Shown piece by piece: positions 9,454-42,172 of a DNA stretch of 64,000 nt. Source of the stretch: a virus; IMG/VR virus record IMGVR_UViG_3300025423_000009, positions 32,001-96,000 of that record, one strand, 5' to 3'. A program made the translations under genes and the position numbers. Under the pieces are notes generated by a model. The model saw only the letters and a program-made list of their open reading frames with translations, had not been told where the DNA came from and searched no databases. How positions within the stretch are numbered: position 1 is the first letter of the stretch; each line of letters opens with the position of its first letter.

Positions 9454-10116
9454 ATGCATATTTATCGATATCCCTCCCGTGAACTTTTATGTTCACTTCC
9501 CAAACTCCCATTCTTTTATGTCATTCAACATCGCGTATCAGGCAAACTTTATGCCGGTTATAAAGGCAAAAAGCCTGATCTTGGAACGTTTATGACGAAT
9601 GATGGATATATGACCTCATCTGGATCAATCAAATACATTCTTAAAACAGAAGGAATTGACAGTTTTATTATTCGACGAATTCGACTATTTGATACTTATC
9701 AAGATGCATTTAATCATGAAATATCTTTTCTAAGTCGCATTGATGCCATGCATAATCTATCATTCTTTAATAAAACAAATGGCCATCCTGAATATACACA
9801 GACCGGCAGAATCACCTCTCTTCAGGCTCGAAATAAACTTTCAAAGGCCGCTAAAGGCAAAAAACAATCTCCTGAATGGATTGAGAAAAGAACGAAAAAG
9901 ATTCGCGGTATTAAGAGAACGCCTGAGCAAAATGAAAAGAATCGGCAGGCTAAATTGGGAACATTACATTCAGATGAAACCAAGCGTAAGATGTCGGAAT
10001 CACATAGAGGCGTTAAACGAGCTCCCCTCACTGAGGCTCATAGAAAAGCCATCAGTGAAGGGAATCGTAAGCGACAGGCTAATAAAATAAAAACTGCAGG
10101 GCAGCCAAGCCAATAA
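9454..10116 (+). mobile_element. Free-standing GIY-YIG (Seg-like) homing endonuclease with NUMOD3 repeats
   Basis: FFYVIQH...LYAGY, YMTSS, NKTNG and repeated HSDETKRKMSE-type units; AT-rich; opposite strand to its neighbours. Confidence 0.85.
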
Positions 10117-11653
10117 AGAATGTCCAAGCGGCGTAAGTCGAAATAAGACGTACTAGTTCATCATCTTTCAGATTAGCACCGCCTGCAGAATACATATTCA
10201 ATCCACGCTGAAGCTTACGAAGGTTGGCCGTCTGCTTAGACTTACCTTCTTTAAGCACCTTGATCACTCTGAGACGTTCTTCATGAGACAATGAAAGACC
10301 GGACTGAAGCGGAATTTTATTACAGATCTGTTCCATGAACTCGAAAACCTCTTCATCACTGGGATTGATATCCACCAAAAAAGCTCTTGTTCTGATTGCT
10401 CCGTCTGGATCGAGCTTGTCCATGTTCAGGTTCGAGATGAAGATGACCTTGCCCGTGAACTCGAAGTATCGAGGAATCTCACCGGCATCCAGAATCTCTT
10501 CGTCCGAACGGTCGTCGTCCGGATCGACAACATTTGATCCGCGTTTATTCCACACCAGCTTACGAATCTTCTTGGTATCAGTCGCCGCCTTCAGAATGTT
10601 ACGCGCTTCCTGATCCTTCAGCGCGTCATCGGAATCATCGAAGAGAATCACGCCATCCTTGTAGCGAAAGAGCAGAGTGTACAGACCGGCAGGAGAAGCC
10701 GTACCCGTGTTCTTGAAATAACCGTCGCCGTCCTTGAGGCCGAGTTCATGCAGCACTTCCTCGACCGTATGAGTCTTACCAACGCCACCGCGACCGGCAA
10801 TGAAGAGAGCATTCGACGAACCTCCGATCGTCATTTTGATCAAATGGCGCAGATCGGAAAGCTGAGTCTTATATGGTAAGCGCTCGATCAGCTTCTCGGT
10901 CTTGGAATCCGTGGAGTATTGCTCATCGGAAGATCCTCGCGATACGGAGGCACCGGTGCATCCGATTCCGGCCAAGACTTTGGACTTGGCAATGATCAAT
11001 TCACGCACGTCTTCGGCCGTTCCTGCCCATGCAAATGACTGCCCCTTCTTGACGATCAGATTGGGAAATTCCTTGATCAAAGCCGCAAAGATAAGCTCAC
11101 CGGTCTTACGATACTGATCGTAGATCGATCCGGGACCATACTTCTTCAAGTTATTGTCCTTGATCATGGCCACGATGCCGTCATAGGCCGTCTCGGGATG
11201 AACGGACTCGAGGATCAGGCCAGAAGCGACTTTCATGTCCAGCGACTCGTTCAGATCCACCTTGGTCGGAGGAGTGAGAAAGTGACCGGACTTGGTGTCA
11301 CCGGTCAGCACGTCGGCGATGATCGGAAGAGTCTGTGCCAAAGAAAGATTCGAGTCGAACTTGATGTGATACGGCGTCTTGGAATCCAACCAGACGTCCG
11401 CGGACTCGACTCCGGTCAGGCCGATCGAGTTGGCCGCCGACCAATTGATGCGGATCGAGCGATTGCCATCCGGAATGAAGAAACGAATGCCATATCCATG
11501 ACCAGCCACTTCGCTCTTAAACTCTTCTGCTTCAGGAAAATGAAAGAGCTCGGCCTCGAGCTTGCGATGCAGGTACGACTTGATCAGCACGGCCGCCTTG
11601 TGTAGGCCAGCCGGTGAGATGCCTTCAGAGAGGTAGTTTTTGAATGATTTCAT
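10079..11653 (-). CDS. AAA+ ATPase with N-terminal extension, late, probably capsid-targeted
   Basis: Walker A GRGGVGKT, Walker B ILFDDSD, LKAATD, AIRTR; N-terminus MKSFKNYLSE. Confidence 0.85.
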   Translation of the reverse strand: MKSFKNYLSEGISPAGLHKAAVLIKSYLHRKLEAELFHFPEAEEFKSEVAGHGYGIRFFIPDGNRSIRINWSAANSIGLTGVESADVWLDSKTPYHIKFDSNLSLAQTLPIIADVLTGDTKSGHFLTPPTKVDLNESLDMKVASGLILESVHPETAYDGIVAMIKDNNLKKYGPGSIYDQYRKTGELIFAALIKEFPNLIVKKGQSFAWAGTAEDVRELIIAKSKVLAGIGCTGASVSRGSSDEQYSTDSKTEKLIERLPYKTQLSDLRHLIKMTIGGSSNALFIAGRGGVGKTHTVEEVLHELGLKDGDGYFKNTGTASPAGLYTLLFRYKDGVILFDDSDDALKDQEARNILKAATDTKKIRKLVWNKRGSNVVDPDDDRSDEEILDAGEIPRYFEFTGKVIFISNLNMDKLDPDGAIRTRAFLVDINPSDEEVFEFMEQICNKIPLQSGLSLSHEERLRVIKVLKEGKSKQTANLRKLQRGLNMYSAGGANLKDDELVRLISTYAAWTFFIGLAALQFLFY

Positions 11654-15266: not shown

Positions 15267-16466
15267 TTAAGAAAAGAATGTTTCCAGAGAAGAAGCGTTC
15301 TCGATGCGATCGTGATGATTATCCTGAATCACAAAGTCGGAATTGACGAAGTCAAGTTTACCCTCCAGATACTTTCGAACCATGCGAGCCGGATGACGAG
15401 CCGTAGTAACCGGAACGTTCTGACAGACATGATTAAGATTGCGCAGAGGATTCAGAAGCTGAAAGTCCAGAGGCATCTTCATGATGGAGAGGACTTCGCG
15501 GACATTGAGGAATCGATCCTCGCAATGATGAGTCAGATGCGTGGGCATGTGACCGACAAAGGCACCGATGACTCCACATGGAACCTCGATCTGCTTGCGC
15601 ATGATGTTGCCTCCCATGCCAAGCTTCAGATGCATGGTTTTGCATCTTTCGGCGTGCTTGGAGAAGCCATTACGAGCCATCCATTCGGAGACTTTCATGT
15701 AGTCGTGTCCGGATGATTCGATCGTTCGAAGGACATTGATCGTTCGTGTTAGCGACTCAGTATACTGACGATGTGACATGCCGCCGAGAATTTCCTCGAG
15801 CAGGTAACGGTAATAAGGATCTTGAGAAGGTACTTTTTCATTGGCTAAAATCTGAAACATCGGATCGTTTTTGGCGCAGCGTTTGGCCAGATCAATCGTC
15901 TCCTCGATACGTTCGGATTTAGCATTCTTGTCCGTGTACTCGAGGAGAGGAACACGATCCTTCTCCTTCCAGAAGAAGTAGAACGTGCGTTCGCGAACCT
16001 GAGAGAGTCCATGAAGGCGAGAGGCCGTACGAAAGATGGAGAACGTGTATCCGTTCTTGTGCCCAATCTTGCGAAGGCGATCAACGACCGGCTGACCAAG
16101 CTTGGACGACAATCGCGGCGCATTCTCACCCCACATAACACGAGGACGAACGTTCTCGAGCACGTACTCCGCCGAGCGGTACATCCACTCATTCATCTTG
16201 GAATTTGAAGCCGCGGATTGTGATAGAGAAGAGAGTCCGCTACATGGACAGACCGTGTTGACCACATCAACCGAGTGTGAATGCTTCTGACCCTGATCGA
16301 GTAGAAAGTATGGCACCTCGTTATTGTAGTAGTTGAGTAGATGAGCGTCATTGTCCTTGAATGGAGAGAACGAGAGGATGTAGTCCGGTCGAGTATTGTC
16401 GAACTCGAGTTGCTGAGCGATGGTCTCTCCGCCGATTAGAGGAACTATGGATGCGTGTTTAATCAT
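15267..16466 (-). CDS. C5-cytosine methyltransferase-fold protein with degenerate SAM-binding motif I
   Basis: Motif IV CPCSG, VI GENAP, VIII QVRERTF and X QNVP; motif I reads VPLIGG rather than FxGxG. Confidence 0.75.
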   Translation of the reverse strand: MIKHASIVPLIGGETIAQQLEFDNTRPDYILSFSPFKDNDAHLLNYYNNEVPYFLLDQGQKHSHSVDVVNTVCPCSGLSSLSQSAASNSKMNEWMYRSAEYVLENVRPRVMWGENAPRLSSKLGQPVVDRLRKIGHKNGYTFSIFRTASRLHGLSQVRERTFYFFWKEKDRVPLLEYTDKNAKSERIEETIDLAKRCAKNDPMFQILANEKVPSQDPYYRYLLEEILGGMSHRQYTESLTRTINVLRTIESSGHDYMKVSEWMARNGFSKHAERCKTMHLKLGMGGNIMRKQIEVPCGVIGAFVGHMPTHLTHHCEDRFLNVREVLSIMKMPLDFQLLNPLRNLNHVCQNVPVTTARHPARMVRKYLEGKLDFVNSDFVIQDNHHDRIENASSLETFFS

Positions 16467-17581
16467 GCAAAGAATTCTTCGAGGATAGTCGTGTGATTGT
16501 TCATATCTGATTTATTCATCTTCTTCAGAGACTTTTTCTTGTCCGGCACTGGAAATTCAGACGTACCATTCCAGTGAGGATAGAACTCTCGAGAGAGGTG
16601 AATCGAATGAGGTTTCTCCATGTATTTGAAATCGAGCTCTCCCTTGGAGTTTAGAAGGTAATCGGTCCAACGAATGAAGCGAATCCCTCTACCTTTACAA
16701 AGATTTTCAAGATCTCGATTAAATACTCTGCGAATATCATCTCTTTGTTGCCAAGAACCCCAGAAAGGTTTGCCTTTATAGTAACCAGTCTTAGGAAGCT
16801 TACGTGACTCATTTTCAATTGGAAGGAGTTCATAGACTGATTTGTTTTTAATAGATAATGCATCTACGGCTTGCACATATCTTTTGGCCAATGAAGTAGC
16901 ATTTTCAAAGGCATCACCCTCGATGCGGCACAGATGATGGCGCACGTCGATGTTGCCAAAGTAACACTCTATAGATGATACCCTATCAAGGCTCGTGAAT
17001 TCATCGATGAACGTATTCAGGCCAGTGTTCAGAGCGCCGTTCAGAGTCTTGAACGGCACGGAGTTCACGGTCCATCCCGGTCGATGCATGCAGATGGCAT
17101 GAGAGTCTCCAATGACGATCTTGTCCGTGACGTGTGGAAAGCGAACTCGAGTCGACTCGAGGCGCATGCGCTTGAGATTCGCCAGATCCGTCTCGAGCCA
17201 TTCGGGCTGAATCTCCTTGGAGTTCTTTCGAGCATTCTCGATGCGTTCGGCAATCATCTCATCGATGGCCGGAAAGTCAACGGCCAGAGAGTACACCTTC
17301 CCTCTGAACTTCGAGAAGTTACGAATGTTCCATGCATATGGAAAGGATTGAACTCCGCCAAAGAGGTTCAGTGTACCGGTCCAATCGGAACCCCAATACA
17401 CATACACAACATCATACTCATTATGATCTTCATGGGCATTACCGGCCCAATTGACGTCAACGCGATCATACTTGCCGGTCTGACGAATCTGATCCGCGTA
17501 GATGACGCCTTGTGCGGATCGATGGGATGCCAGACGAGGAACTATCGGAATGAAGGGTGCGGTTACAAGAGCTTTCATCAT
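16463..17581 (-). CDS. Fusion of a T4 beta-glucosyltransferase N-domain-like region and an SGNH hydrolase/acyltransferase domain
   Basis: NEYDVVYV...LNLFGG...KFRGKVYSLAVD resembles recalled BGT NDYDRLIV...INFFGG...KYKSKIYYLFTD; C-half carries GDSH, GNID and SIHLS. Confidence 0.6.
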   Translation of the reverse strand: MMKALVTAPFIPIVPRLASHRSAQGVIYADQIRQTGKYDRVDVNWAGNAHEDHNEYDVVYVYWGSDWTGTLNLFGGVQSFPYAWNIRNFSKFRGKVYSLAVDFPAIDEMIAERIENARKNSKEIQPEWLETDLANLKRMRLESTRVRFPHVTDKIVIGDSHAICMHRPGWTVNSVPFKTLNGALNTGLNTFIDEFTSLDRVSSIECYFGNIDVRHHLCRIEGDAFENATSLAKRYVQAVDALSIKNKSVYELLPIENESRKLPKTGYYKGKPFWGSWQQRDDIRRVFNRDLENLCKGRGIRFIRWTDYLLNSKGELDFKYMEKPHSIHLSREFYPHWNGTSEFPVPDKKKSLKKMNKSDMNNHTTILEEFFA

Positions 17582-17587
17582 GTAAGT

Positions 17588-17615
17588 ATTATATCGCACT
17601 TCAGACTTCTGTAAA
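17588..17615 (-). promoter_or_regulatory. Sigma70-type promoter TTTACA-N16-TATAAT, leaderless geometry
   Basis: ATG at 17581 begins 6 nt after the -10 box. Confidence 0.7.
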
Positions 17616-18662
17616 TTCCAAAGTAGCGCGATCGTAATTTTTATCCCAGAGACGACGCGTCGTGTGCCCATTCAGCACGACCTTGCCTTCCGGATGCTTG
17701 GCCAGATCGAAATCCATCGGAAAGATCCAATCATAAGGAATACGCTTCGTTGGATGTTTTACGCCATGATGGATAAAAATAGACTTTGCAAAAAAACATG
17801 ACTTATCCTCTACGTTCAGCATCTTCTGCGAAGTCATAGGATTGTCTGGATGCTCACAGAGGTAACTCATCTGAGAAAGCCACACGTTGGCCTGATGATT
17901 CTTTGGAACGAACTCGCCGTCCGCATCGATCTCATACTTCACCTTGCCGTTGACGTTCTCGAGGAAGATCTGATGCATGCCGTCGAAGTGTCCGGTGCCG
18001 CCGAAAAGGACAGACTCCGGATCGACGAGATGAGGATAGGCCATTGCGACGTATCGAGCCGTGTTCTTACACGGATAGAGCGGAGAACGAAAGTTTTGTT
18101 CCTTCTTGAAGTGAGCCTCGAGGATCTTGGCAAACTGCATCATCGTGTACCTCTTGCCGTTTGTAAGGTGATGATGCAGAGCATTCGCCGCTTTCAGCGG
18201 TCCAGTCAGGAGCCACTCCTTCACGTCCGTACCCTTGGGATAGTAGATCTGAAAGAGGTCCGAACGGGCATGGCGATTATGCTTGAAGTGTTCGCGAGTC
18301 TTATCGATGCCGTGGGTCATCAGATGAGTTAGAGTACCCCAATGCTCATTGGTAAACGAGAAGACGAGGGCGTACCAAAGACGATCACGAGAGTCTTTTA
18401 CTCCTGTCATGAGCTCCACGAAAGGATGTTCATGCCAATGAAGACGATGGGAGAAGATCTGATAGTCTTCTCGAAGGAGACGATCTTCTCGCTTATCAAA
18501 CTCTCGGCAGAATTCAAAGAACTTCTCGAGCCTCTCGTCTTGAGTCCACTCACGCATCCAAGAATCCGTAGGCTTACCGTCTTTCAATAGTACCTGCGTC
18601 GTATTTGGATACTCGATGTTGCGATAGGGAATGGATCCCTCGATGAAAGGCTCGAGACTCAT
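17601..18662 (-). CDS. aGPT-Pplase / 5-hmU-kinase-helical (HhH-like) DNA base-modification protein, paralogue A
   Basis: C-terminal GGTGHFDGMHQI...NVEDKSCFFAK matches the GPGA.RGL...DIEN.LCE.K pattern as recalled; located in the gp42 cluster. Confidence 0.55.
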   Translation of the reverse strand: MSLEPFIEGSIPYRNIEYPNTTQVLLKDGKPTDSWMREWTQDERLEKFFEFCREFDKREDRLLREDYQIFSHRLHWHEHPFVELMTGVKDSRDRLWYALVFSFTNEHWGTLTHLMTHGIDKTREHFKHNRHARSDLFQIYYPKGTDVKEWLLTGPLKAANALHHHLTNGKRYTMMQFAKILEAHFKKEQNFRSPLYPCKNTARYVAMAYPHLVDPESVLFGGTGHFDGMHQIFLENVNGKVKYEIDADGEFVPKNHQANVWLSQMSYLCEHPDNPMTSQKMLNVEDKSCFFAKSIFIHHGVKHPTKRIPYDWIFPMDFDLAKHPEGKVVLNGHTTRRLWDKNYDRATLEFTEV

Positions 18663-19562: not shown

Positions 19563-20504
19563 TTATTCATTCCACATGCGACTGCGGTCCAGATCACCGA
19601 AGTCTTTCCACTTGCGCTGAGAGTTGATGCGCTTCACGTCAACCTTCGAGAGGTTGCGATTGATGTGAGCGTCCGAGCCGACATTGATGAATATCGCACC
19701 TGGCTTTCCGTCTTTGACGAATCCCTCCCATGCCTTGGCATCGTATGCGGCCGTGGACGGGAACGGCATAGTCTTGGCACACTTATGAGGAGTCAAAAAT
19801 GGCATCGTGGCCGAAACCACCTTGGCATCGCCGATCTCTCCCTTATGAATGTTTCGAGCCACGGCGACTCCATATGCTTGAGCCGTCGGCCATCCGATCT
19901 GCAATGCACGGACCATCGTGCCAGTAGAAACCGCACACCAGATTTCCGTGGGCTCATCGCCGATGATTTTTGTAATCGTATTGGCCATGTTGGCCAAGCC
20001 AGCCGTGACCATGGGGTTTCCGGTCAGACCAAATGGAAGGTATTGAGCATTGTTGGCCTCGGCCCACTTACGTGCATATGAGTTGAGAACCGGCATCGCG
20101 GCGATCTTGAAGAATCGAAGGTCTACATGTGAATACGCGGCCAGAGATCCTTGATGATTGGAAACTTCCGAGGATGCCGGACAGAAGAAGACGCACTTCT
20201 TACCATACATCTCCGCGAGCATCGCAATAGCATCCGGAGCATGACCCTGGCGAGGGGCGCAGTACACGAGCGTATCCTTATTCGTCTCGGCGATCACTCG
20301 CTCTCCGCCAAAGGCTTTTAGTCCACCTGGTGCCAGATCCGCGCGCAAAATGTACTTATCTCTAAAGCGTTCAACGATCGGCTCGGCGATCTTGGACTTA
20401 AACGTCCCCCAGATCTCCGCATAGTATTGTTTGGCCTCAGATCGAGACATGCCCATCGGAATATCCTTGTTGCTTCCATCCGTAACTATCGTATATGGTT
20501 TCAT
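19563..20504 (-). CDS. PLP-dependent enzyme, fold type II (PALP)
   Basis: RADLAPGGLKAFG (PLP lysine), WCAVSTGTM phosphate loop, IFINVG. Confidence 0.8.
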   Translation of the reverse strand: MKPYTIVTDGSNKDIPMGMSRSEAKQYYAEIWGTFKSKIAEPIVERFRDKYILRADLAPGGLKAFGGERVIAETNKDTLVYCAPRQGHAPDAIAMLAEMYGKKCVFFCPASSEVSNHQGSLAAYSHVDLRFFKIAAMPVLNSYARKWAEANNAQYLPFGLTGNPMVTAGLANMANTITKIIGDEPTEIWCAVSTGTMVRALQIGWPTAQAYGVAVARNIHKGEIGDAKVVSATMPFLTPHKCAKTMPFPSTAAYDAKAWEGFVKDGKPGAIFINVGSDAHINRNLSKVDVKRINSQRKWKDFGDLDRSRMWNE

Positions 20505-20511
20505 GGTAAAA

Positions 20512-21720
20512 TTATTTAGTGGGGAACTTATCAGGCACTCCGATCCAGTCCTTGAAGTCAGAATGGGATTGAACAAGCTTGATGTAGGCCTGTGGAGTCA
20601 GATTGTTCGCCTTCAGCACCTCGTCGTAATAGAAGTTCTGTGTTGAATCGTTGAACGTCTTCACGAGGCCGAGCTTAAGCATAGGAAGCTGACGACCGTA
20701 CGGATGAATGATCTTCGTGGAACTGAATACTCGATCTCGATCGATCGTATTGTAGGCTTCTCCCAGGCGAACATACGATGTCACCCAACGAATGTAGTCA
20801 CAGCAAACATCTTCGCAATCGTAAGGCACACTGCCGGTATCTTTGCATGCCATCTCCATGACCGAGTCTAGAAAGTCTTCGGTCTTCATCTTCTTGAGGG
20901 GACGAGCCAGGTACGAGATACATTCGATCGCATTGGAACCATAGAAGAACATCGAGTCGCGAACGACGTATTGAGGATACCAGTCGGCGATGTCGGCCAC
21001 GATCGCCGCGTACTGAAAGTGATACTGTCTCAGGCCATTTCGCACGTTCCAGTCAAGCATGAAGCTTCCGATCTCTCGAAGAGTCTTCTTCTGACCCTTC
21101 ACGAGCCAATCGGCCAGATCTCGTGCCAGTCGTGGAGCATACTCACAAAGGAAGTAGTCTCCTCCACGTTTGTACTTCGATGAAGGCTTGGGAAACGCCG
21201 GAAACTGATAACCCACGGATGTGTAGAATGAGTTCGACTCATGACGGACCATCTCGCACATATCCTCGATCGTCTTGGCTCGATGAAGCTTGAAGAGGAG
21301 AGTGTTATGGTACCCCGAAGGTTTCTGAGCATAGTTGATGCCAGAACCACACACTCGATGAAGGATGAAGATGTAGAGCCATTCGGCCAGAGAGAAGTCA
21401 TCATGCTTTCCAATCCAGTCATGAGCCACTTGACTCCTCTGCTCGGTGATCATTCCGGCTTGCATCTTCTTCCAGTACGGATGACGATCGGTCCATCCAT
21501 AGAAGACGTCATTGACGATCTGAGAGAATCCGGCATACTTACGCTCGACGACGTCGTACAGTTCGACGTGTTCCATGAGATCATCACCCATCTTCGATTC
21601 TCGATGAGTCATCATTCCATATGGAGGCAGAGAGGAGACATTGCACTTGGTCTGTTGCTCTCGAGCCAGATCGTAATACCGCAGAAAGTCCTGATAGTAT
21701 GGAGTCGCTTCAATTTTCAT
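20512..21720 (-). CDS. aGPT-Pplase / 5-hmU-kinase-helical (HhH-like) DNA base-modification protein, paralogue B
   Basis: LYDVVER, FILHRVCGS, YGSNAIECISYL and DCEDVCCDYIRW. Confidence 0.6.
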   Translation of the reverse strand: MKIEATPYYQDFLRYYDLAREQQTKCNVSSLPPYGMMTHRESKMGDDLMEHVELYDVVERKYAGFSQIVNDVFYGWTDRHPYWKKMQAGMITEQRSQVAHDWIGKHDDFSLAEWLYIFILHRVCGSGINYAQKPSGYHNTLLFKLHRAKTIEDMCEMVRHESNSFYTSVGYQFPAFPKPSSKYKRGGDYFLCEYAPRLARDLADWLVKGQKKTLREIGSFMLDWNVRNGLRQYHFQYAAIVADIADWYPQYVVRDSMFFYGSNAIECISYLARPLKKMKTEDFLDSVMEMACKDTGSVPYDCEDVCCDYIRWVTSYVRLGEAYNTIDRDRVFSSTKIIHPYGRQLPMLKLGLVKTFNDSTQNFYYDEVLKANNLTPQAYIKLVQSHSDFKDWIGVPDKFPTK

Positions 21721-22168
21721 AATATTGAATCCAATCGTATTCAATTCCGGCTTCCGCAAAGAGTTCTTTAGTAAAGTCACATGACTTAATCCATTGCTCG
21801 GCCACGATCTGTCGTGGAACGACCACGCGTTTAATACCAACCTGAATGATTCCCTTGGCACATTCAGAGCAAATTGGTAAGCCAGTGGCATAGAGAGTTG
21901 CTCCTTTCAGAGAAACACCATGTTCGACCGCGTTGTAGATCGCATTCATCTCGCCATGAACAATATACTTGTATTTGACTTCACGAACATTTAGACGATC
22001 TGGATTATCCTCAATTCCACTAGGAAAGCCATTGTAGCCAGTAGACAAAATCTTTCGATCTCGAACAACAACCGCTCCAATACGAGTCGATGGATCTTTG
22101 GACCATGATGCGACTTGTCGAGCCATGTCCAAAAATCTTATGTCCCATTTGTCGACTTCAGTTTGCAT
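21710..22168 (-). CDS. cd: dCMP deaminase
   Basis: SKDPSTRIGA, TGYNG, HGEMNA, PICSECAK. Confidence 0.92.
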   Translation of the reverse strand: MQTEVDKWDIRFLDMARQVASWSKDPSTRIGAVVVRDRKILSTGYNGFPSGIEDNPDRLNVREVKYKYIVHGEMNAIYNAVEHGVSLKGATLYATGLPICSECAKGIIQVGIKRVVVPRQIVAEQWIKSCDFTKELFAEAGIEYDWIQYYEN

Positions 22169-22904
22169 AGGGGCGTACTTTAGGATAGAACTTACGATAT
22201 TCTTCCTTACTTATCGAGTGCTGTCCAGTCAGATCGAAATGATCGATCAGATAGAACTGACTCGAATAGACATGTAAATTTCCAACGTTCCAGACGATGT
22301 GACCCAGATCGACGTTGGATTCCGTCAAACGATTGTAGTCATTCAGAAGCTTCTTCAATACATGAAGCTGCCAGGCGTAGTCGTTACGATATCCAGCCCA
22401 GGCATCGTTGCTTCGCATCGAGACGATGGCATGCATGGAATTCTCACGAATGAAGTACTGAACCGTGTTCGTGCAGATGAAATCCGACATGCCGTCCTTA
22501 CAGAAGTCTTCATGCATGGAAGGACGCGTGTAGATCATGATCGCACGACGTGAATTCTTATTGCAGATGAGTTCTCTCAGGCATCCGTCATATTGACTAC
22601 CATTCTCCTTCGACCAGATGCACCATCCATAGTTCGAGTTGATCAATCCATTGGGCGTCGCGATCTTCTTCCAGATCTCTGGAACCTTGGCGGGAATGTC
22701 ATTCACGTTTAGTGACTTTGACTCATACCATTGAAGCTCACGCTTCACGTAGTCGTCATTCACGGAGCCAAAGATCGTCGGCTCATCGGCCATGAATTGA
22801 ACTCCGATGATCTCGACGGTCAGAGCTCCGGTCTTGTCGATCGTGAAGTTCTCGTTCCTCAAAAGATCCGAGAACTCTTTGCGAATGTCATTGATGTTCC
22901 GCAT
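22158..22904 (-). CDS. 42: dCMP hydroxymethylase (T4 gp42 orthologue)
   Basis: DKTG..T.EIIG, RELQWY, INSNYGW, SRRAIMIYTRPSM, DFICTN, MRSND and RNDYAW; carries the Asp at the T4 D179 position that specifies dCMP. Confidence 0.92.
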   Translation of the reverse strand: MRNINDIRKEFSDLLRNENFTIDKTGALTVEIIGVQFMADEPTIFGSVNDDYVKRELQWYESKSLNVNDIPAKVPEIWKKIATPNGLINSNYGWCIWSKENGSQYDGCLRELICNKNSRRAIMIYTRPSMHEDFCKDGMSDFICTNTVQYFIRENSMHAIVSMRSNDAWAGYRNDYAWQLHVLKKLLNDYNRLTESNVDLGHIVWNVGNLHVYSSQFYLIDHFDLTGQHSISKEEYRKFYPKVRPYAN

Positions 22905-23269
22905 TATCCCTTGACCTCCTTCTTGGGACGATTAAAAATGTCATGATTTGCTTTTTGACCATCCATCTTGCCTCGACAGTATGAGACGATGAACGAGCAA
23001 TAGTTAGCCATGTCCTTGGCCGAGTCCTCGATCGATTCGAAGTTGGGTTGATAGTTTGGATCGTTTAGCATGGCTGAAACCACGGATTCCAAACGAAGCT
23101 TCTTGGCATGGACGATGTCCATCAGAGTCAAGATGCCATTTGGATAGTAATCGGCTTGCTTGATTCGAGACACGGCATTTTGATAGTCCACGCCTTTACG
23201 AGTCTGCAATTCAATGCATTCTTGTAAGACGCGAATCGATTCACGAGATGTTGATAGAATAGGTGACAT
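22904..23269 (-). CDS. Nucleotide-modification-associated domain protein (Nmad1/DUF1599-like)
   Basis: RKGVDYQN...ADYYP.G...K.LRL...FESIEDSAKDMANY. Confidence 0.7.
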   Translation of the reverse strand: MSPILSTSRESIRVLQECIELQTRKGVDYQNAVSRIKQADYYPNGILTLMDIVHAKKLRLESVVSAMLNDPNYQPNFESIEDSAKDMANYCSFIVSYCRGKMDGQKANHDIFNRPKKEVKG

Positions 23270-23282
23270 AAAATGAAGAGAC

Positions 23283-23311
23283 ATCATACGGCATTGAGCC
23301 GCTGAAGTACA
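23283..23311 (-). promoter_or_regulatory. Sigma70-type promoter TGTACT-N17-TATGAT at the head of the modification operon
   Basis: Same family at 15234-15262, 25369-25396, 31935-31963, 35467-35495 and 50763-50790. Confidence 0.65.
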
Positions 23312-25404: not shown

Positions 25405-26397
25405 TTACGACAGAATTCGATCGACTCGAATCATCACTTGCTTGACGGCCATCCACATGTCGAGGTAAGTATAGGTTGCCAATCGTCCCAGGAAGATTGT
25501 CTTCCTCTCCGCATCAGCCAGCTTCTTGTATTCCATATAGACCTTCAGGCCTTCTCCGAATGGGATTGGATAGAACGGAACGTCTTCATTTCCGCAAGTC
25601 TGAGGATACTCCTCGGTGATGACAGTCAATCCTTCATGATTTGCAGTGAAGTAACCGTGATCGTACTTTCGAGTGTAGTCGTTCGTTCTATTGTTCTCGT
25701 TCTGAATGCAAAACGGCATGCGCTCACTCGTTACTTTATGAACGAATCTGAGAGAACGATAAGGAAGGACACCGAATCGAAAGTTGAAGTACTCGTCGAC
25801 CTTTCCAGTGTAGACGATCAGGTCTGTCGAGTGCTTCTTCCATTCGTCTGAGGCGCATCCGAGCTCTACAGGAATGCCTTCGAGCATGGCTTCGAACATT
25901 TTCGTGTATCCGTTTCGGGGAATGCACTGATACTTCTGGCCTTCGAACCAGGTGGGATCGTCACAATCCTTGGTCTTCGGGATGCGATTCGTGATGCTTG
26001 CTGGGATTTGATCGAACGGAACTCCCCATTGCTTTTCGGAGTACTCGCGAAACATATACTCAATGATCTCTTCCTGAGACAGCTCGCGACCAATCTCGGC
26101 GACGGTCTTTCGAGAATATGGAAGCGATACTAGCCCAAGGCGAGTGTTTCCCTTCGGCTGAAGCTTAAATGGAGTCCACTCTGTGAAACGGGATAGGAAT
26201 TCAAACACTCGCTCATCGTCCGTGTGAAAGACGTGAGGGCCATAGTTGTGAACCGTCACTCCACATACATTGGAATCATAGCAGTTACCGCCGATGTGCT
26301 TGCGCGAGTCGAAAATGCGGCACTCATGTCCAGCATCGGTCAGGAGTCGTGCGGCCGTGATACCAGAGAGGCCGCATCCGACGACGTTAACTTTCAT
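25405..26397 (-). CDS. glf: UDP-galactopyranose mutase
   Basis: GCGLSG FAD motif, HIGGNCYD, YGPHVFH, YQCIP..GY, PYRSL, PFYPI, LGRLATYTYLDM. Confidence 0.92.
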   Translation of the reverse strand: MKVNVVGCGLSGITAARLLTDAGHECRIFDSRKHIGGNCYDSNVCGVTVHNYGPHVFHTDDERVFEFLSRFTEWTPFKLQPKGNTRLGLVSLPYSRKTVAEIGRELSQEEIIEYMFREYSEKQWGVPFDQIPASITNRIPKTKDCDDPTWFEGQKYQCIPRNGYTKMFEAMLEGIPVELGCASDEWKKHSTDLIVYTGKVDEYFNFRFGVLPYRSLRFVHKVTSERMPFCIQNENNRTNDYTRKYDHGYFTANHEGLTVITEEYPQTCGNEDVPFYPIPFGEGLKVYMEYKKLADAERKTIFLGRLATYTYLDMWMAVKQVMIRVDRILS

Positions 26398-27047
26398 AGC
26401 TTTTCAAATTCAGGCAGACGTATGGTCTTCGACAGGATGTCGAGGAGATGGTTTCGTTTCTCAAATGTAGCCCGCCAATCTTTGAAGTTCTGCTGAGGAG
26501 AAAATTGCTTTTTCACTTGCACGAACGTCATTCCCCATGATTCCGGATAATGTTTCGACTCGACAAATTCAGTCTTTTGATCCAGACTCGAGATGCCGAA
26601 GAACGCTTTGACCGCTTCTTCTGGCCTTTCCCAGACTATGCCTCCGTACATATCGTGCTTGTCTTTCGGCCATGCGGTGTCATGGAATACGACATAGCCA
26701 CCTTCCCTGATGTGAGGGAACCAGAAGAATAGCTCACAAAGAACCTGCTCTTTGATGTGGCACGTGTCAATGAAGAGCAGGTCGATGGATCCTTTGTTCC
26801 AGTGTTTGCCGATCGTAACTGAGTCTCCGAGTATGAATGCATATCGTTCATGATTCGTCAGATAAGATGGAACCTGAGCAGAGTCAATGTCGACTCCGTG
26901 CACTCTATTATTTCGAGCAGAAGCATCGCGAATCATCATCATCGACGACTCTCCGCTTCTAACGCCTAGATCCACAAACATTCTGTCGGATCCAAGCGAA
27001 TCGACGGTTTGTGCTAGAATCTCTTGATTTGGTCCTAGATCGTTCAT
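26394..27047 (-). CDS. Class I SAM-dependent methyltransferase (Methyltransf_24-like)
   Basis: VDLGVRSGES, GVDID, GDS, LLFIDTCH, GGYVVFHD. Confidence 0.85.
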   Translation of the reverse strand: MNDLGPNQEILAQTVDSLGSDRMFVDLGVRSGESSMMMIRDASARNNRVHGVDIDSAQVPSYLTNHERYAFILGDSVTIGKHWNKGSIDLLFIDTCHIKEQVLCELFFWFPHIREGGYVVFHDTAWPKDKHDMYGGIVWERPEEAVKAFFGISSLDQKTEFVESKHYPESWGMTFVQVKKQFSPQQNFKDWRATFEKRNHLLDILSKTIRLPEFEKL

Positions 27048-27928
27048 AATAAGTATTCCTTGATTTGCATGTCCAAGTCAGAACATTGATGTTTAAGAAT
27101 GTTTTTACTATTAGCAAATTCGTCTATAATCGTCTCATATGAAGTCAGACATCGTCGAATCACTTCACCTATCATTCGGTGATCGCCGAGTTTATACATG
27201 TCTGGAACCGTTACGTCTTCACTAAAAGCCGCTGAACCTTTACGATTTGTGATAACACAGTTACCGAAAAGCAAAGCTTCACGAGGGATTCGATCCTTTC
27301 CAGGATGATTCCCAAAGTCTATATAAATCTTGCTCTTGCACAGGAGATCGATGACCTGTTCTCGATTCAGTCCTGAGATCGGTCTGAAGTCGATGTTCGG
27401 ATTCTCCGTCATGATCTGCATCGTCACTTCGTACCCCTTGGCCGGATTATAGCATACGAAGTCTTGCTTCTCTGATAGAGGAATGTCTTGAATCGTATTG
27501 GCACCAAAGATGTAATCGTTCAGCATGTGAACATTCTTAGCTCCATTGCGAGTGACGTAGTCGTAAGCGTACCGCGACTGACAGAAGTGAGTAATTGAGG
27601 TGTCGTGAAAGTCCTGAAACTTAGAATGATTGTTGTCAACGCTTAGCCACCAGATAGCCCGTGATATCGATTTGAATGAAGGAAGCATCGCGGTCCACAC
27701 TTCAGGAACGATTAGTAGACTTTCAGCTTCGTCTGGAACAGAGAATCCATACTCTGAAAACTTGTAGTGAGCATAGATGTTTAGGACCGGATTCGAGCAA
27801 TGACGATCAAAGATCGGTATAGCTTTACCTCCAAGTCGATTGATGCCGTCGATCAACTGATACAATGATTCGATCCCTCCGGCCTGATACTGAGCCGGAG
27901 TCATCACATAAATTGCTTTGAATCTCAT
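27044..27928 (-). CDS. GT-B fold glycosyltransferase
   Basis: GGIESLYQL, YNPAKG, KIYIDFG.HPGKDRIPREA. Confidence 0.7.
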   Translation of the reverse strand: MRFKAIYVMTPAQYQAGGIESLYQLIDGINRLGGKAIPIFDRHCSNPVLNIYAHYKFSEYGFSVPDEAESLLIVPEVWTAMLPSFKSISRAIWWLSVDNNHSKFQDFHDTSITHFCQSRYAYDYVTRNGAKNVHMLNDYIFGANTIQDIPLSEKQDFVCYNPAKGYEVTMQIMTENPNIDFRPISGLNREQVIDLLCKSKIYIDFGNHPGKDRIPREALLFGNCVITNRKGSAAFSEDVTVPDMYKLGDHRMIGEVIRRCLTSYETIIDEFANSKNILKHQCSDLDMQIKEYLL

Positions 27929-28626
27929 GTGCGCACGTACTTTCTTCTTACATATTCAAGTTCAGATTGCTTCTTCGCATCGCTAACCAAAGACGAGCTT
28001 ATCTGATTCGAATGCTCGCGATTTGCCACCGTGATCTGATTGCAGATCGCTGGAAGCCCATGCTTATCATACAGCTGCTTATAGTAGTCGACATCCATCA
28101 GCCATATCAAATTCTCATCGAATCGCAGGACGTTTTCATTCTTGAACATAATGACACTCGGCGAGCTGATAGTATTTGTGCCATATTGAATCTCATCATG
28201 ATAGAATGGAAAGTTCGGTCGTTCCAGCCTGACACCGTCCGGAGACTGGCATGAAGCCGTTGCCAACCAGTAGTTTTGACTTCCCGCGAAATAGAACATC
28301 ATTGCTTCAAGACTTCGATCGGAAGTTAGGAAGTCATCTTGAAAGAGTGGCTTTATCACCTTTCCACATGCGTGATGAATCGCATTGTTGGTATTGTGAG
28401 AAGAGTTACCTCGATTCATCGCTTTAACATATCGAATGAGTAAACGATCATTCCATCGTTCGCATAGTCGATTGATCCCATCGTCGATGCTCTGATCGGA
28501 CACGATCACTTCGAAAGACTTGAATGTCTGACGAGTTAGTATTGAAAATGAATGTTCAAGGTAAGCGACGCCTTGACCGGCCATTTCATAAGTTGGAATG
28601 CATATCGATACGATCGGATCGTTCAT
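27925..28626 (-). CDS. GT2 family glycosyltransferase
   Basis: SICIPTY, EVIVSDQS, NTNNAI, LFQDD. Confidence 0.88.
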   Translation of the reverse strand: MNDPIVSICIPTYEMAGQGVAYLEHSFSILTRQTFKSFEVIVSDQSIDDGINRLCERWNDRLLIRYVKAMNRGNSSHNTNNAIHHACGKVIKPLFQDDFLTSDRSLEAMMFYFAGSQNYWLATASCQSPDGVRLERPNFPFYHDEIQYGTNTISSPSVIMFKNENVLRFDENLIWLMDVDYYKQLYDKHGLPAICNQITVANREHSNQISSSLVSDAKKQSELEYVRRKYVRT

Positions 28627-29519
28627 AGCTTGGGTAGATTTAGATTCTCAAGTATTTCACTCAGACGATAGAAATAGTCACCCCAGTAGAGAGCCCTCCG
28701 GCAGTTATCTTCGATTGCCTGACTCCTCTTATGATAGTCTTCTTCCGTTAGACCATTGACGATTTGAATGAGTTCGTTCTCGTCATTGAACGTGATGTAC
28801 CCATCTGGATTGAAGAAGTCTGATAGATTTGGACATCCCCAGTATATGGGAACGGTCTTGGTCAGGAAGCTGTCAATCACTTTCTCCGTAAAGTAGTTCT
28901 TATTCCTCGAGTTTTCGACCGCGATATGGAACATGCTTTTCCAGCATACTACTTTGTCTTGAGGTTCGCATTGAAAGATCCAGCTGTTTGGAGTTGTCAC
29001 TGAAGATCGAGAGTTGAAGATGCTGTGTCTAAGCCGATGACCCTCGATGGCATTCTTGACACCGCAAAGAAATGAAGTTTCAAACTTCTTTTCTTTGATG
29101 CTGATATTCTGATATGTCCGCTTGTTGTCCCAGATGAAAGACGTACCAAAGGGAAACATCATGGAGTTTGGACACTTTGACAGTATTGAATCTCCCCAAG
29201 TCAAAATCAAATTAAAAGCTCGATGATTTGTGATCGCCCAGTCGTGTAGACCAAACAATTGATTCGGTTCCTGTATGACGAGTATGTTACATGCGCTAAG
29301 TTTCAGCTGATCTGTATTCGGAATAAAGTCGGTGAATACGGTAACGTTCCTATCGGAGAAGTCGACTTTTTTGCTCGGAAGAATGAAGTCTTCTCCAGTC
29401 AGAAGAGTCTTCTCATAAAGAGAAGGTGGTATGAAGGTCGAGAAGAATTTCATATAATGATCCAGTTTTTCTGATACAGGTCGCTGATATTTGCCTCCGC
29501 CAGGTGCTGACGAAACCAC
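28623..29519 (-). CDS. GT10-like (fucosyltransferase-like) glycosyltransferase
   Basis: FHIAVENS...YFTEKVIDSF..KTVPIYWG. Confidence 0.75.
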   Translation of the reverse strand: MVSSAPGGGKYQRPVSEKLDHYMKFFSTFIPPSLYEKTLLTGEDFILPSKKVDFSDRNVTVFTDFIPNTDQLKLSACNILVIQEPNQLFGLHDWAITNHRAFNLILTWGDSILSKCPNSMMFPFGTSFIWDNKRTYQNISIKEKKFETSFLCGVKNAIEGHRLRHSIFNSRSSVTTPNSWIFQCEPQDKVVCWKSMFHIAVENSRNKNYFTEKVIDSFLTKTVPIYWGCPNLSDFFNPDGYITFNDENELIQIVNGLTEEDYHKRSQAIEDNCRRALYWGDYFYRLSEILENLNLPKL

Positions 29520-30265: not shown

Positions 30266-30269
30266 AATA

Positions 30270-30965: not shown

Positions 30966-30969
30966 AAAA

Positions 30970-31966: not shown

Positions 31967-32380
31967 TTATTTTTCGTATGCCTTCGAAATGATTCCATGA
32001 TTGTTGGAATGATCAGGCGCTTTCCATCCCGGCTCTTTTATCAAATCCGGAAGTCCCCAAGGATTCGGACGAGACGCCTTAATGCCAACCTTCTTGTTCA
32101 TGTTGGCGCGCAGAACTTCTTCCCAAGCTTCCTGAGCGTCGACGTCGTATGCATCCAGAGTGCCGATGGCTACGACGCAGAGATCGATCAGCGCATCAAC
32201 GATTTCTTCGGCATCACCGGCCTCAACGGCCTTCATTCCCTCATTGAGTTCCTCTTGCAAAAAGCGAAAGCGAAAGCTGAGGTACTCGCGCAGATGTTCC
32301 TTCGATAGCGTGAGAGTCTTGGTCTTCACGCCGTAATGCTTATGCATATCCTTGATGTCTTGATTCCAGTTTAAGCTCAT
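31967..32380 (-). CDS. MazG-like / PRA-PH dNTP pyrophosphatase
   Basis: LQEELNE...EIVDALIDL...ANM.K...DLIKEPGW..P. Confidence 0.85.
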   Translation of the reverse strand: MSLNWNQDIKDMHKHYGVKTKTLTLSKEHLREYLSFRFRFLQEELNEGMKAVEAGDAEEIVDALIDLCVVAIGTLDAYDVDAQEAWEEVLRANMNKKVGIKASRPNPWGLPDLIKEPGWKAPDHSNNHGIISKAYEK

Positions 32381-32829: not shown

Positions 32830-33903
32830 TTAAAAGAAGCTTTCAAGGCTACCGACATCTTCGGACGTCCAGTCGATCGACTTTAGAATCAGATCGAGAG
32901 GTTCCAAGAACGTCTTCTCGAATTGAGTGTCATAGTCGACAGAATTATGTAGGCCGAGTTCCTTCGGCAGATCTCCTGCGGCCGGAAAGGCGATCACGTT
33001 CTCCTGAATCTCATTTGGAATCTTCAGATACACGAAGCGAATCTTGTCGCCAGACTGAATGCCTCGATAGGTGGATGTCAGGCCCTTGGCCTCGATCCAG
33101 TGATTGTACAGAAGTGCTCCACGAACGTGAATCGGTGTTCCCTTCTGATAGATGGTTCCATTACTCTGCCAACCATCAACATCTGAAGTTCCTCGAGGAA
33201 AGGCGACTTCTCGAGGACTCATGGAAGAAAACTGCTTGCGAAATTCCGCGATGGCTTCCTGAGTAGCCGCCTTATTGCCAGTCATAATGATCTTGAACAT
33301 GCGCTTCATGGCCGAACGACAGACGGCCGGAGTCGACGACTTGATCGCTTCAATCCCCATGATCTTTAGCTTAGGTTCCGTGTACCGCACTCCCTCATTG
33401 TCCAGAACGTTTAGAATGTAACGCTTCTTGGCCGTCCATACGGCACGATCCGCGATGGCCTCACGCTTCATGATCATGCGATTCACATAAGCATTGGTAG
33501 CCTTGGCGAACTTATTGAATGCGACCTCGAGTTCCAGACCAATACCCTTCTCATAGAACTCATCGAGAAACTTGATAGGATCTTTTGGCTTGAACTTGTC
33601 GATCACGTCCTTCAGAGTCACATACACGGAGTCGGTATCGACGGCCAACACTCGATCCTTCTCGATGCCAATCATCTTAGACACGTAACGATTCACGGTA
33701 GCTTCGGCCAAACGAATGGCCGTCTGACCGGACAGAGTCACGGCCTCGGCCACCTTAATGTTGAAGTAGCGGAAAAAACGATTTCCGAGTGCTCCGTACA
33801 AACTATTGAGAAGCACCTTCAGTGACTGTTGTTCGATTTCCAAGTTAGAAATCTGGGTATCGAGTTCTTTCAATTCCTTTTGCAATAATAAAAATTCACT
33901 CAT
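32830..33903 (-). CDS. 43B: DNA polymerase gp43, C-terminal half (43B)
   Basis: KVLLNSLYGALG, AVDTDS, KKRY, KIMGIEA.KSSTP. Confidence 0.95.
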   Translation of the reverse strand: MSEFLLLQKELKELDTQISNLEIEQQSLKVLLNSLYGALGNRFFRYFNIKVAEAVTLSGQTAIRLAEATVNRYVSKMIGIEKDRVLAVDTDSVYVTLKDVIDKFKPKDPIKFLDEFYEKGIGLELEVAFNKFAKATNAYVNRMIMKREAIADRAVWTAKKRYILNVLDNEGVRYTEPKLKIMGIEAIKSSTPAVCRSAMKRMFKIIMTGNKAATQEAIAEFRKQFSSMSPREVAFPRGTSDVDGWQSNGTIYQKGTPIHVRGALLYNHWIEAKGLTSTYRGIQSGDKIRFVYLKIPNEIQENVIAFPAAGDLPKELGLHNSVDYDTQFEKTFLEPLDLILKSIDWTSEDVGSLESFF

Positions 33904-41172: not shown

Positions 41173-41844
41173 TCAGATCGTTGAGGTCTTCTCGAGTGCC
41201 ACGAAGTATTCGAGCTTGAAGTCCTGATGAGTCCACTTGGAGATCAATTTGGACGAGACTTCAACGGAGTAGTCGCCACTCATCACCTTGAGATTGTCGA
41301 TCAGGAACTCCAGAGAGAACTCCTTGCCCAGCTGATGTTTCTCGATCAGCTCGATCGAGAACGTGTTGGCCGATGTGTCCTTGGGATCCAGAACGACCAG
41401 GCTCAACGAGCCGGATACTGTACCCTTCAGAGCGACGATGGAATGCCCAAGGACCGATGCGGCGCGGCGAATCTTGGAGAGCAGAGCATTCGTGACTTTC
41501 ACTTGAATGTCGGCCACTGGCATCTTGATCTCCTTCTGAGGAGTCGTGAGGACCGATGGATTGGCAAATCGATACTTCAAAGTCGTCACGTCTTTGGAAA
41601 GGATCGCGGAGTCTTCTTGCAGATCGATTGTCGGATCATCGATCAGATTTAATGCGGAGATGAACTCATTTAGATCGTAGACTCCAAAGGAACGATCGAA
41701 CGTTTCCGGAACCGTGACCGTGGCCATGATGTTCTTGGCCTCCGCGATCGTCGAGAAGGTATTGCCCTCCTTGATTACGAGATTGGGATTGATGGATGCG
41801 AAGTTCTTTAGAACGTCGAGTGTGAACTTGGATAGTTTAAGCAT
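41173..41844 (-). CDS. 45: Sliding clamp gp45
   Basis: MLKLSK.TL.VLKNFASIN, FGVYDLNEF, YFVALE. Confidence 0.95.
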   Translation of the reverse strand: MLKLSKFTLDVLKNFASINPNLVIKEGNTFSTIAEAKNIMATVTVPETFDRSFGVYDLNEFISALNLIDDPTIDLQEDSAILSKDVTTLKYRFANPSVLTTPQKEIKMPVADIQVKVTNALLSKIRRAASVLGHSIVALKGTVSGSLSLVVLDPKDTSANTFSIELIEKHQLGKEFSLEFLIDNLKVMSGDYSVEVSSKLISKWTHQDFKLEYFVALEKTSTI

Positions 41845-42172
41845 GTGATTTATTATTATTTGATTGCGGTTGTTGATCTTTTTCGGCAAATTGAAGATAA
41901 GCTCGTGCGTCGACGTAGTTGTCGGCATGAAACACACGTGCGGCACGTTGAACCTTGAAGGACACCATCATGAGCTCGACGAGCCATGATGGCATCGCAT
42001 GATCCAGGCGAATCTGATAGTGCTGCTGAATCAGAGCGGTCCATGCCAGACCGATGTTCTCGTGGGACAGAGTCGCGTCGCCATATACCTTGCCGCGTTC
42101 GGCAATGGTCGCTTGAACGACGTCATTCGTGGATTGGGTGTCTTTCATCGCTGAGTATGGGATCTTGGACAT
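41837..42172 (-). CDS. DUF6378-like protein (nucleotide-modification-associated helical fold)
   Basis: ERGKVYG...IGLAW...MMVSFKVQR...DNYVD...Y. Confidence 0.7.
   Translation of the reverse strand: MSKIPYSAMKDTQSTNDVVQATIAERGKVYGDATLSHENIGLAWTALIQQHYQIRLDHAMPSWLVELMMVSFKVQRAARVFHADNYVDARAYLQFAEKDQQPQSNNNKSHA

Follow-up and report, generated by a model that had tools for sequence, protein, structure and literature searches.

The window analysed here is the whole 64,000-nucleotide stretch at positions 32,001 to 96,000 of the IMG/VR record IMGVR_UViG_3300025423_000009, which is a 118-kb record of a marine T4-like phage, with terminal repeats. It contains a gene for a methylase-like protein (P0001; 15267..16466, stop included), an open frame of 399 codons documented by the open reading frame (ORF) list, its translation, a match to the Pfam family PF00145, an AlphaFold2 (AF2) model and structural alignments. 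Coordinates are those of the window unless a locus is named, and the window genes given with coordinates lie on the minus strand unless a plus sign is given. The gene order is gp41-type helicase, UvsX, methylase-like gene, p402, p353, and small ORFs together with YopX, continuing with a fold-II enzyme of the pyridoxal 5'-phosphate (PLP) type, p459, a dCMP deaminase, a thymidylate synthase (TS) homologue, a pyrophosphohydrolase-like protein, a glycan cassette and a split gp43. In T4, the corresponding place, between uvsX and gene 42, is that of the beta-glucosyltransferase.

The methylase-like protein matches PF00145 (DNA_methylase) over residues 65-340 only (E 5e-9; 36.3 bits against a cut-off of 22), and it scores 20.1 bits with the NCBIfam model TIGR00675 (dcm), below the cut-off of 100.65. 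The AF2 model, which was built on 68 diverse homologues, has a mean pLDDT of 95 and follows the strand-helix order of class I methyltransferases from residue 4. According to VIA-align, the model superimposes on M.HaeIII (1dct) with Z 25.4 and an rmsd of 3.2 over 281 residues (model 2-367 to chain 1-324) and on M.HhaI with Z 25 (model 1-370 to chain 11-325); further matches from Foldseek and VIA-align include DNMT1 and the phage carboxymethyltransferase CmoX (Z 23.7). Because the alignments span the whole of M.HaeIII and M.HhaI, the predicted structure has the two-domain fold of C5-cytosine methyltransferases (C5-MTases), in which a Rossmann-type catalytic domain is combined with a target-recognition domain, N-terminal half included. 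The likeness to type II C5-MTases (M.HaeIII, M.HhaI and E. coli Dcm) thus covers the entire fold, with ~280-300 aligned residues.

Most of the motifs are those of type II C5-MTases as well. Motif IV is P-C-S (codons 74-76; 16239..16247; in the context VCPCSGLS, with P74-C75), with the catalytic Cys75 and with Ser in the place usually taken by Gln. Motif VI (ENV) is E-N-A (codons 114-116; 16119..16127; WGENAPRL, E114-N115-A116), whose Glu is the residue that protonates cytosine N3 in these enzymes. Motif VIII (QxRxR) is QVRER (codons 156-160; 15987..16001; SQVRERTF, with Q156, R158 and R160), and motif IX is DRFLNVRE (R..RE). The N-terminus reads MIKHASIVPLIGGETIA (also given as ...ASIVPLIGGETIA), and the motif I place is occupied by VPLIGG (V8-P9-L10-I11-G12-G13; codons 8-13; 16428..16445), as located from the translation, the offset of the structural alignment and the family frequencies. 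Using the start offsets, V8, L10, G12 and G13 correspond to F18, G20, G22 and G23 of M.HhaI, so the FxGxG of DNA (cytosine-5)-methyltransferases (EC 2.1.1.37) is absent while PC, EN and QxRxR are present. Motif X is also a variant, QNVP (codons 349-352; 15411..15422; CQNVPV, 349-353) instead of the canonical GN(A/S)V; HMMER aligned C348-Q349-N350 to G-N-A of M.HaeIII. A preliminary description made from the letters of this DNA had proposed a C5-methyltransferase fold that keeps PC, EN and QxRxR and has lost FxGxG; the fold is borne out by the pLDDT of 95 and the Z scores of 25, and the motif pattern by the translation and a 68-member alignment.

The family comprises 677 clusters at 50% identity (E<=1e-3), and with these relatives the ORF is, by sequence comparison, a real gene. 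Motif counts were taken from 160 representatives, and residue frequencies from the 68-sequence alignment, in which identities go down to 27%. Among the representatives, PL[IV]GG is found in 132 (the remainder are mostly fragments), PCAGLS in 120, PCSGLS in 5 and PCQ in none; ENAP is present in 141 and QxRxR in 155, and the family form of motif X is xQNVP. In the alignment, position 8 is I or V, and P9, L10, G12 and G13 are conserved in 67, 66, 68 and 66 of the 68 sequences, respectively. After Pro-Cys, 59 sequences have Ala and 7 have Ser; E114 is found in 68/68, N115 in 67/68, R158 and R160 each in 68/68, and Q349 in 66/68. Since PL[IV]GG is conserved across the family, the altered motif I reads as a family signature, not decay, and the alignment of homologues that the preliminary description had suggested as a check confirms that the departure from FxGxG is a conserved one.

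The cofactor side is altered elsewhere too. At position 32, the end of strand 2, where canonical enzymes have the ribose-binding Glu, 66 of 68 sequences have Ser or Thr (placed by offset and secondary structure), and a conserved D/E40 lies two turns into the helix after this strand. Taken together, the alignments show motifs I, IV (PCQ to PCA/S) and X (GN to xQN), and by its offset-based placement probably motif II, as rebuilt family-wide. Several cofactor-side features are kept, namely an aromatic residue at position 33, just after strand 2 (Y/F/W, 63/68), an acidic one at position 57, after strand 3 (D/E, 52/68), G12-G13, and N350 of motif X. The loss of FxGxG is therefore correctly described, but a loss of S-adenosylmethionine (SAM) binding does not follow from it: an adenosine-type ligand, such as SAM or a SAM-like donor, may still bind because aromatic 33, acidic 57 and the GG loop persist.

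Unlike type II C5-MTases, the family has PL[IV]GG, Ser/Thr at the presumed place of the ribose Glu, PCA/S and xQNVP, its N-terminal 70 residues are unrecognisable by sequence, and its score is far under the NCBIfam dcm cut-off. The family profile matches solved methylases from motif III/IV onward only, and a profile of the N-terminal 70 residues searched against PDB sequences gave no methylase even at E<=10. As hhalign of the family against E. coli Dcm covered motifs IV-VIII only, motifs I-III are mapped by offset only. A single-sequence search of PDB sequences with the methylase-like protein gave nothing relevant, and a DNA search with its gene among cultured phages gave no match; at the protein level, cultured phages gave matches in the S-TIM5 cyanophage group and in Pseudoalteromonas phage XG4 alone (27-28% identity). 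In the library searched we found no paper on this family, and the MetaGPA paper does not mention it.

Two side observations concern the reach of the family. One related phage carries tandem methylase-like paralogues (locus L085, 10010-11161 and 11212-12414) with 28% and 42% identity to the protein of the window. The distant members P0216, P0252 and P0259 are fusions to zf-CXXC or C2H2 zinc fingers with a eukaryotic or giant-virus-like look; one zinc-finger-fused member has a weak match to Tet_JBP (22.8 bits, below the cut-off) and YPNAGGG as its motif I.

The protein ends in SLETFFS (codons 393-399; 15270..15290), a C-terminal tail of the sliding-clamp-binding type that has the S-L-(D/E)-x-F-(F/L/M) pattern of T4-type clamp clients at its extreme end. 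T4 gp43 and gp55 dock on the gp45 clamp via such C-terminal peptides. The likeness to the T4/RB69 gp45 clients (gp43 polymerase, gp55 late sigma and gp33) is one of sequence; as far as we are aware, the T4 proteins known to use the clamp include no enzyme that modifies DNA. In the genome, 6 of 156 ORFs have a clamp-type tail, with L-[ED/Q]-x-F-[FLM] as its general form: the C-terminal piece of the gp43 DNA polymerase (32830..33903; PF00136), whose end GSLESFF serves as an internal reference; the gp55 late sigma homologue (50135-50755; SLEMFLAKH); the methylase-like protein; p402 (ILEEFFA); an AAA_16 protein of 524 aa (10079-11653; LQFLFY); and one ORF outside the window. The presumed docking partner is a gp45-type sliding clamp (41173..41946; phrog_223, DNA polymerase processivity factor, E 2.5e-64), and the window also encodes gp44 and gp62. 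Across the family, the clamp motif ends 33 of 134 full-length representatives as compared to 0.2% of internal sequence windows (~100-fold enriched), and a further 27 of 134 end in [LIVM]F, which resembles bacterial beta-clamp peptides (0.7% of internal windows). The enzyme is thus probably delivered to nascent phage DNA, and p402 and the AAA_16 protein would be new clamp clients. We note that the family B polymerase gp43 is split into two ORFs (33925-35457 and 32830-33903), one with the exonuclease domain and the start of the polymerase domain, and the other with the rest and the clamp tail.

The second association of the family is with the synthesis of 5-hydroxymethylcytosine (5hmC or hmC). 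The TS homologue of the window (22158..22904) is a T4 gp42-type dCMP hydroxymethylase (5hmdCMP synthase). It is 60% identical to the gp42 homologue, also a dCMP hydroxymethylase, found in phages of the Salmonella phage S16 group, and DFICT and RSNDAWAGYRND supply the diagnostic Asp143, Asp169 and Asp177. According to the criteria of Lee et al. 2026 (PMC13326640), Asp177 indicates dCMP as the substrate, Asp169 excludes the 5-hydroxy-dCMP type, and an acidic residue at 143 indicates a hydroxymethyl product. Adjacent genes encode a dCMP deaminase (21710..22168; PF00383 E 1e-21, phrog_174 E 4e-46) and a small nucleotide pyrophosphohydrolase-like protein of 127 aa (22904..23287). Homologues of the latter are encoded next to the TS homologue of Xp12-type phages, where they carry the annotation nucleotide pyrophosphohydrolase, and it probably removes dCTP. 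Because of the gp42-type Asp residues and the Xp12-type pyrophosphohydrolase homologue, the phage is very probably an hmC phage, as supposed in the preliminary description, and very probably makes 5hmdCTP and removes dCTP. Two other assignments were rejected: a thymidine (5hmU) hypermodification cluster, suggested by the dCMP deaminase and the PLP enzyme, was rejected as the primary one because the TS is of the gp42 type with Asp177, and 5-hydroxycytosine (RB69-type) was rejected because position 169 is Asp, not Asn.

This association holds in related loci. Among 80 close viral loci (54-100% identity), we scored gp42 where at least 7 kb of upstream flank was available, and a gp42-type gene with Asp143, Asp169 and Asp177 was found in 35 of 35, 1.3-6.8 kb upstream. 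In the distant-clade set (80 loci at 30-53% identity, including contigs of 136-389 kb), 34 have a gp42-type gene within 10 kb; 33 of these have all three Asp residues and one has Ser at 143. The three long records with no flanking gp42-type gene all have one elsewhere on the contig (3/3). As both locus sets are phylogenetically clustered, their members do not count as independent events. Locus searches with single proteins of distant members yielded few loci or none. Pseudoalteromonas phage XG4 (27% identity) has a gp42-type gene with the three Asp residues 4.6 kb from its methylase-like gene. In cyanophage S-TIM5, a gene annotated as 'ThyA' lies 2.4 kb from the methylase-like gene (L001, 5766-6602) and encodes Asp where E. 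coli has Asn177 (ARSNDMATGVPLD); dCMP is the probable substrate of this 'ThyA', and modified cytosine may therefore be present in the DNA of this cultured phage. By these gene neighbourhoods, the methylase-like family belongs to the hmC way of life, tied to a gp42-type dCMP hydroxymethylase.

The immediate upstream partner is p402 (16463..17581; 372 aa from Met31), identified by its SGNH fold model and by the overlap of its TGA stop with the ATG of the methylase-like gene (ATGA). From this arrangement the methylase-like gene is read as translationally coupled to p402, which adjoins it in most related loci. The p402 model has a pLDDT of 78, with the SGNH fold at residues ~151-344 and an invariant GDSH at 158-161. 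The structures that it resembles most are those of sialate O-acetylesterases and GDSL esterases (Foldseek E 2e-6, Z 11), and the peptidoglycan O-acetyltransferases PatB and OatA match at Z 9. A T4 beta-glucosyltransferase-like N-domain is suggested only by a weak Pfam hit on a homologue (E 0.04), the structure searches being dominated by the SGNH domain. A p402-like sequence also forms the N-terminal half of the 795-aa ORF233c of Aeromonas phage 31 (L082, 6040-8427), a protein encoded in the T4-like Aeromonas phages 31, 44RR2.8t, 25 and phiAS4. PHROG 17781 links the later part of ORF233c to a protein with the helical domain of 5-hmdU-DNA-kinase (HMUDK) in another related locus (L071), and ORF233c looks like a fusion of two cassette proteins.

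Further upstream, the gene content is variable. The window has the orphan p353 (17601..18662), for which no match was found among Pfam, PHROG, NCBIfam or PDB sequences; the fold-II PLP-type enzyme (19563..20576, start codon uncertain; phrog_7093 E 3e-73, and PF00291 at 25 bits, below the cut-off); and the orphan p459 (20512..21891, probable start Met45), which likewise has no match among Pfam, PHROG, NCBIfam or PDB sequences. For p459 the lead is a language-model one only: the nearest Atlas clusters (score 0.97) carry PF18723 (11-36% of members) or PF18724 (12%), and p459 is possibly of the HMUDK-helical or amino-acid:DNA-transferase (AADT) type. The proposal that p459 and p353 are aGPT-Pplase/AADT paralogues was rejected (no support from Pfam, PHROG, NCBIfam or PDB; mutual BLAST E 0.08), and so was homology of the PLP enzyme to ViI gp226 or M6 gp52 (no BLAST link). 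Among phages, the PLP enzyme matches only a fusion protein of an Erythrobacter phage and a single Microcystis phage. In the former (L090, Erythrobacter phage vB_EliS_R6L gp1), the PLP-type domain is found inside a large 'DNA modification methylase' near a PAPS-reductase-like gene.

The PLP enzyme, p459 and p353 are limited to the small subclade of the window (L002, L004-L007). In other related phages, the slot is filled differently, among others by nucleotide-sugar and inositol-phosphate-synthase-like gene sets. One locus (L071, 5940-10004) has DUF6552, a myo-inositol-phosphate-synthase-like protein, a small kinase-like protein and the HMUDK helical-domain protein; another (L058, 6338-10004) has DUF6552, a cytidylyltransferase, an epimerase, an unknown protein and a UDP-galactopyranose mutase. 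Judged by such contents, the slot that separates the dCMP deaminase from the methylase-like gene resembles an exchangeable cassette for hypermodification. The methylase-like enzyme is the constant element beside it, and with cassettes this varied its reaction cannot depend on one particular adduct. The preliminary description had further suggested that the enzyme adds Cys, Ser or an amine and that the PLP enzyme then trims the product. A constant gene beside a variable cassette speaks against such a chain, and with the PLP gene confined to the five loci named above the trimming step is not supported; nor is the choice of Cys, Ser or an amine, to which the data give no pointer.

The best explanation of these observations, from the sequence comparisons and the structural model, is that the methylase-like protein is a working enzyme of a large phage-borne branch of the C5-MTase fold, and its chemistry probably differs from ordinary methylation. 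As a tentative proposal that we think possible but hold with some reserve, it would be a clamp-tethered enzyme working on 5hmC in nascent DNA, where a Cys-C6 adduct would let it exchange or transfer the substituent of the 5-methylene carbon. In DNA with 5hmC in place of C, ordinary C5 methylation has no substrate. The C-terminal tail would dock the enzyme on the gp45 clamp, so that it scans freshly replicated DNA in which cytosine is already 5hmC. The base would be flipped out, Cys75 would add to C6 and Glu114 would protonate N3, as in a methylase, and Ala/Ser instead of Gln after PC would give space for the CH2OH at C5. Since C5 already bears CH2OH and the pocket is widened, activation by Cys75 would not serve methyl transfer; it would labilise the 5-CH2-O bond through an exocyclic methylene intermediate, and the oxygen substituent would be exchanged for another nucleophile. 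An ester leaving group may be prepared beforehand by the SGNH partner, which would acylate the hydroxyl. In its most specific form, which we consider unlikely as it stands, the protein would be a SAM-independent '5hmC:nucleophile transferase', docked on the clamp, that expels the SGNH-made ester and places a new group on every newly replicated cytosine.

C5-MTases, engineered ones among them, provide a chemical precedent in vitro. All C5-MTases share the residues Q82 and N304 (M.HhaI numbering); Q82A enlarges the pocket, and shrinking both residues lowers methylation and favours bulky groups (PMC10666283). eM.SssI couples thiols such as cysteamine to 5hmC in CG sites (5hmCG; PMC7176277), and M.MpeI engages 5hmC covalently and strips off its hydroxymethyl group, releasing formaldehyde (PMC11347137). 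Engineered enzymes thus perform thiol coupling and hydroxymethyl exchange on 5hmC via the Cys-C6 adduct (PMC10666283, PMC7176277, PMC11347137), and the literature basis that the preliminary description had claimed for SAM-free C5-MTase chemistry on 5hmC holds up (PMC7176277, PMC11347137). In the methylase-like family, the equivalents of Q82 and N304 are both naturally different, and the small residue after Pro-Cys is a likeness to M.HhaI Q82A/N304A and to eM.SssI. The latter is reportedly the Q142A/N370A variant. However, the engineered reactions are laboratory ones with the SAM site intact, whereas the changes in the methylase-like family are natural and family-wide, include motifs I and II, and are known from sequence and model.

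Two natural systems invite comparison. CmoX of Synechococcus phage S-B43 (PDB 8yf3) is, like the methylase-like protein, a phage relative of C5-MTases with the pocket altered at the N304 position. It is a DNA cytosine C5-carboxymethyltransferase dependent on carboxy-SAM (Cx-SAM) and starts a hypermodification; it keeps the SAM contacts Phe25, Glu47, Phe48 and Asp69, and an Arg at the N304 position holds the carboxymethyl group (PMC12783734). Unlike CmoX, the methylase-like family has Val/Ile, Ser/Thr and Gln instead, with Gln349 and Asn350 at the N304 place. The substrate of CmoX is plain C and its partner is CmoA, whereas the methylase-like family is partnered with gp42; no CmoA-like gene was found in the part of the window that was scanned for it, at 8-32 kb. 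The AADTs (aGPT-Pplase clade 2; M6 gp51 and ViI gp247) share the proposed logic of a group swap by addition of a thiolate to C6, aGPT-Pplase/AADT enzymes attacking C6 with a Cys (PMC8989533), and they are a precedent in vivo. Their fold is an unrelated one of the helix-hairpin-helix type, and they act on 5-phosphomethyl-uracil, the product of a DNA kinase. The likeness would be one of 'works like' only, conditional on the 5hmC exchange reaction; the 5hmC:nucleophile transferase would then be the cytosine counterpart, with unrelated folds, of the kinase-plus-AADT hypermodification of thymidine.

Several observations weigh against the exchange of a 5hmC substituent. The adenine-pocket features (aromatic 33, acidic 57, G12-G13 and N350) are retained, I or V at position 8 is usual in many non-C5 class I methyltransferases, and the motif II equivalences come from offset and secondary structure, not from residue-level superposition. 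Some loci have no SGNH partner, and the cassettes next to the methylase-like gene differ widely, that of L058 being one which seems self-sufficient for glycosylation. The fusions to zf-CXXC and to C2H2 fingers with the weak Tet_JBP match fit ordinary 5-methylcytosine (5mC) biology, and that hmC fully takes the place of C in this uncultured phage is something we infer from its genes.

Much of this also feeds the strongest rival, a true C5 alkyltransferase dependent on SAM or a SAM analogue, clamp-borne, that mops up stray unmodified cytosines in nascent DNA; with every C5 substituted, neither host restriction nor the anti-cytosine nucleases of the phage itself would harm the genome. We rate this as rather unlikely, though several points favour it: PF00145 scores above its cut-off, all catalytic motifs, motif IX and the motif X Asn are retained, the residues kept at positions 33 and 57 and in the GG loop could still hold adenosine, CmoX sets the example of a phage relative using an altered SAM donor via a change at the N304 position (PMC12783734), the zinc-finger fusions fit, and a cassette-independent function agrees with the conservation pattern. 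It has to contend with the Leu in place of the first Gly of GxG and the Ser/Thr at the presumed place of the ribose-binding Glu (66/68 each), with the absence of PCQ given that Q82A lowers M.HhaI methylation (PMC10666283), with a TIGR00675 score of 20 bits against 100.65, and with motifs I-III that no profile aligns. Moreover, the dCTP-removing enzyme should leave little substrate, and no Cx-SAM synthase-like gene was seen within the cluster.

Hydroxymethyl chemistry that is cofactor-free or linked to folate, either converting stray C to 5hmC behind the fork or removing the hydroxymethyl group at chosen sites, would equally be independent of the downstream cassette. It has precedent in the 'atypical reactivity' of M.HhaI, which hydroxymethylates the C of GCGC in vitro (PMC7176277), and in the release of the 5hmC hydroxymethyl as formaldehyde by C5-MTases (PMC11347137). 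We nevertheless consider it improbable, as hmC is already supplied by gp42 and the dCTP-removing enzyme, a site for a one-carbon donor is not evident, and the coupled SGNH partner is left unexplained; to judge from T4 biology, removal would also regenerate the plain cytosine that hmC phages work to avoid. In the M.HhaI reaction, formaldehyde is said to be the donor. The clamp tail, the tight coupling to the SGNH protein and the altered cofactor pocket would suit a non-catalytic, clamp-associated binder or base-flipper of hmC-DNA as well, which might shield the DNA or recruit neighbouring enzymes. The Cys, the Glu and both Arg are (near-)invariant down to 27% identity, which is the pattern of a maintained active site, and we regard a non-catalytic role as very hard to credit.

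If 5hmC is indeed the substrate of the family, this would be the first known case in which a natural enzyme applies methyltransferase-type covalent catalysis to an already substituted cytosine. This would open an unexplored branch of phage DNA hypermodification and might provide a tool for site-directed 5hmC chemistry, which now relies on engineered methylases. Even for an unusual SAM enzyme, the strict partnership with a dCMP hydroxymethylase would be unexplained; a methylase-like family with a clamp-type tail in phages that pre-make 5hmdCMP is itself a difference from type II C5-MTases. The polymerase-like clamp tail suggests that phage DNA modification can be physically coupled to the replication fork, comparable to DNMT1-PCNA in eukaryotes, and the 677-cluster family is abundant in ocean viromes.

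Two other regions of the window are worth recording. Between gp42 and gp43, a second modification-type cassette at 25405-31920 encodes a UDP-galactopyranose mutase, a Methyltransf_24/CmcI-type protein, glycosyltransferases of the GT2, GT10-like and GT11-like types, and two orphans; its product may be a glycan, attached either to the DNA or to the host surface. Between the AAA_16 gene and its neighbours, the opposite strand carries a homing-endonuclease-type gene (9454-10116, +; NUMOD3, phrog_314).

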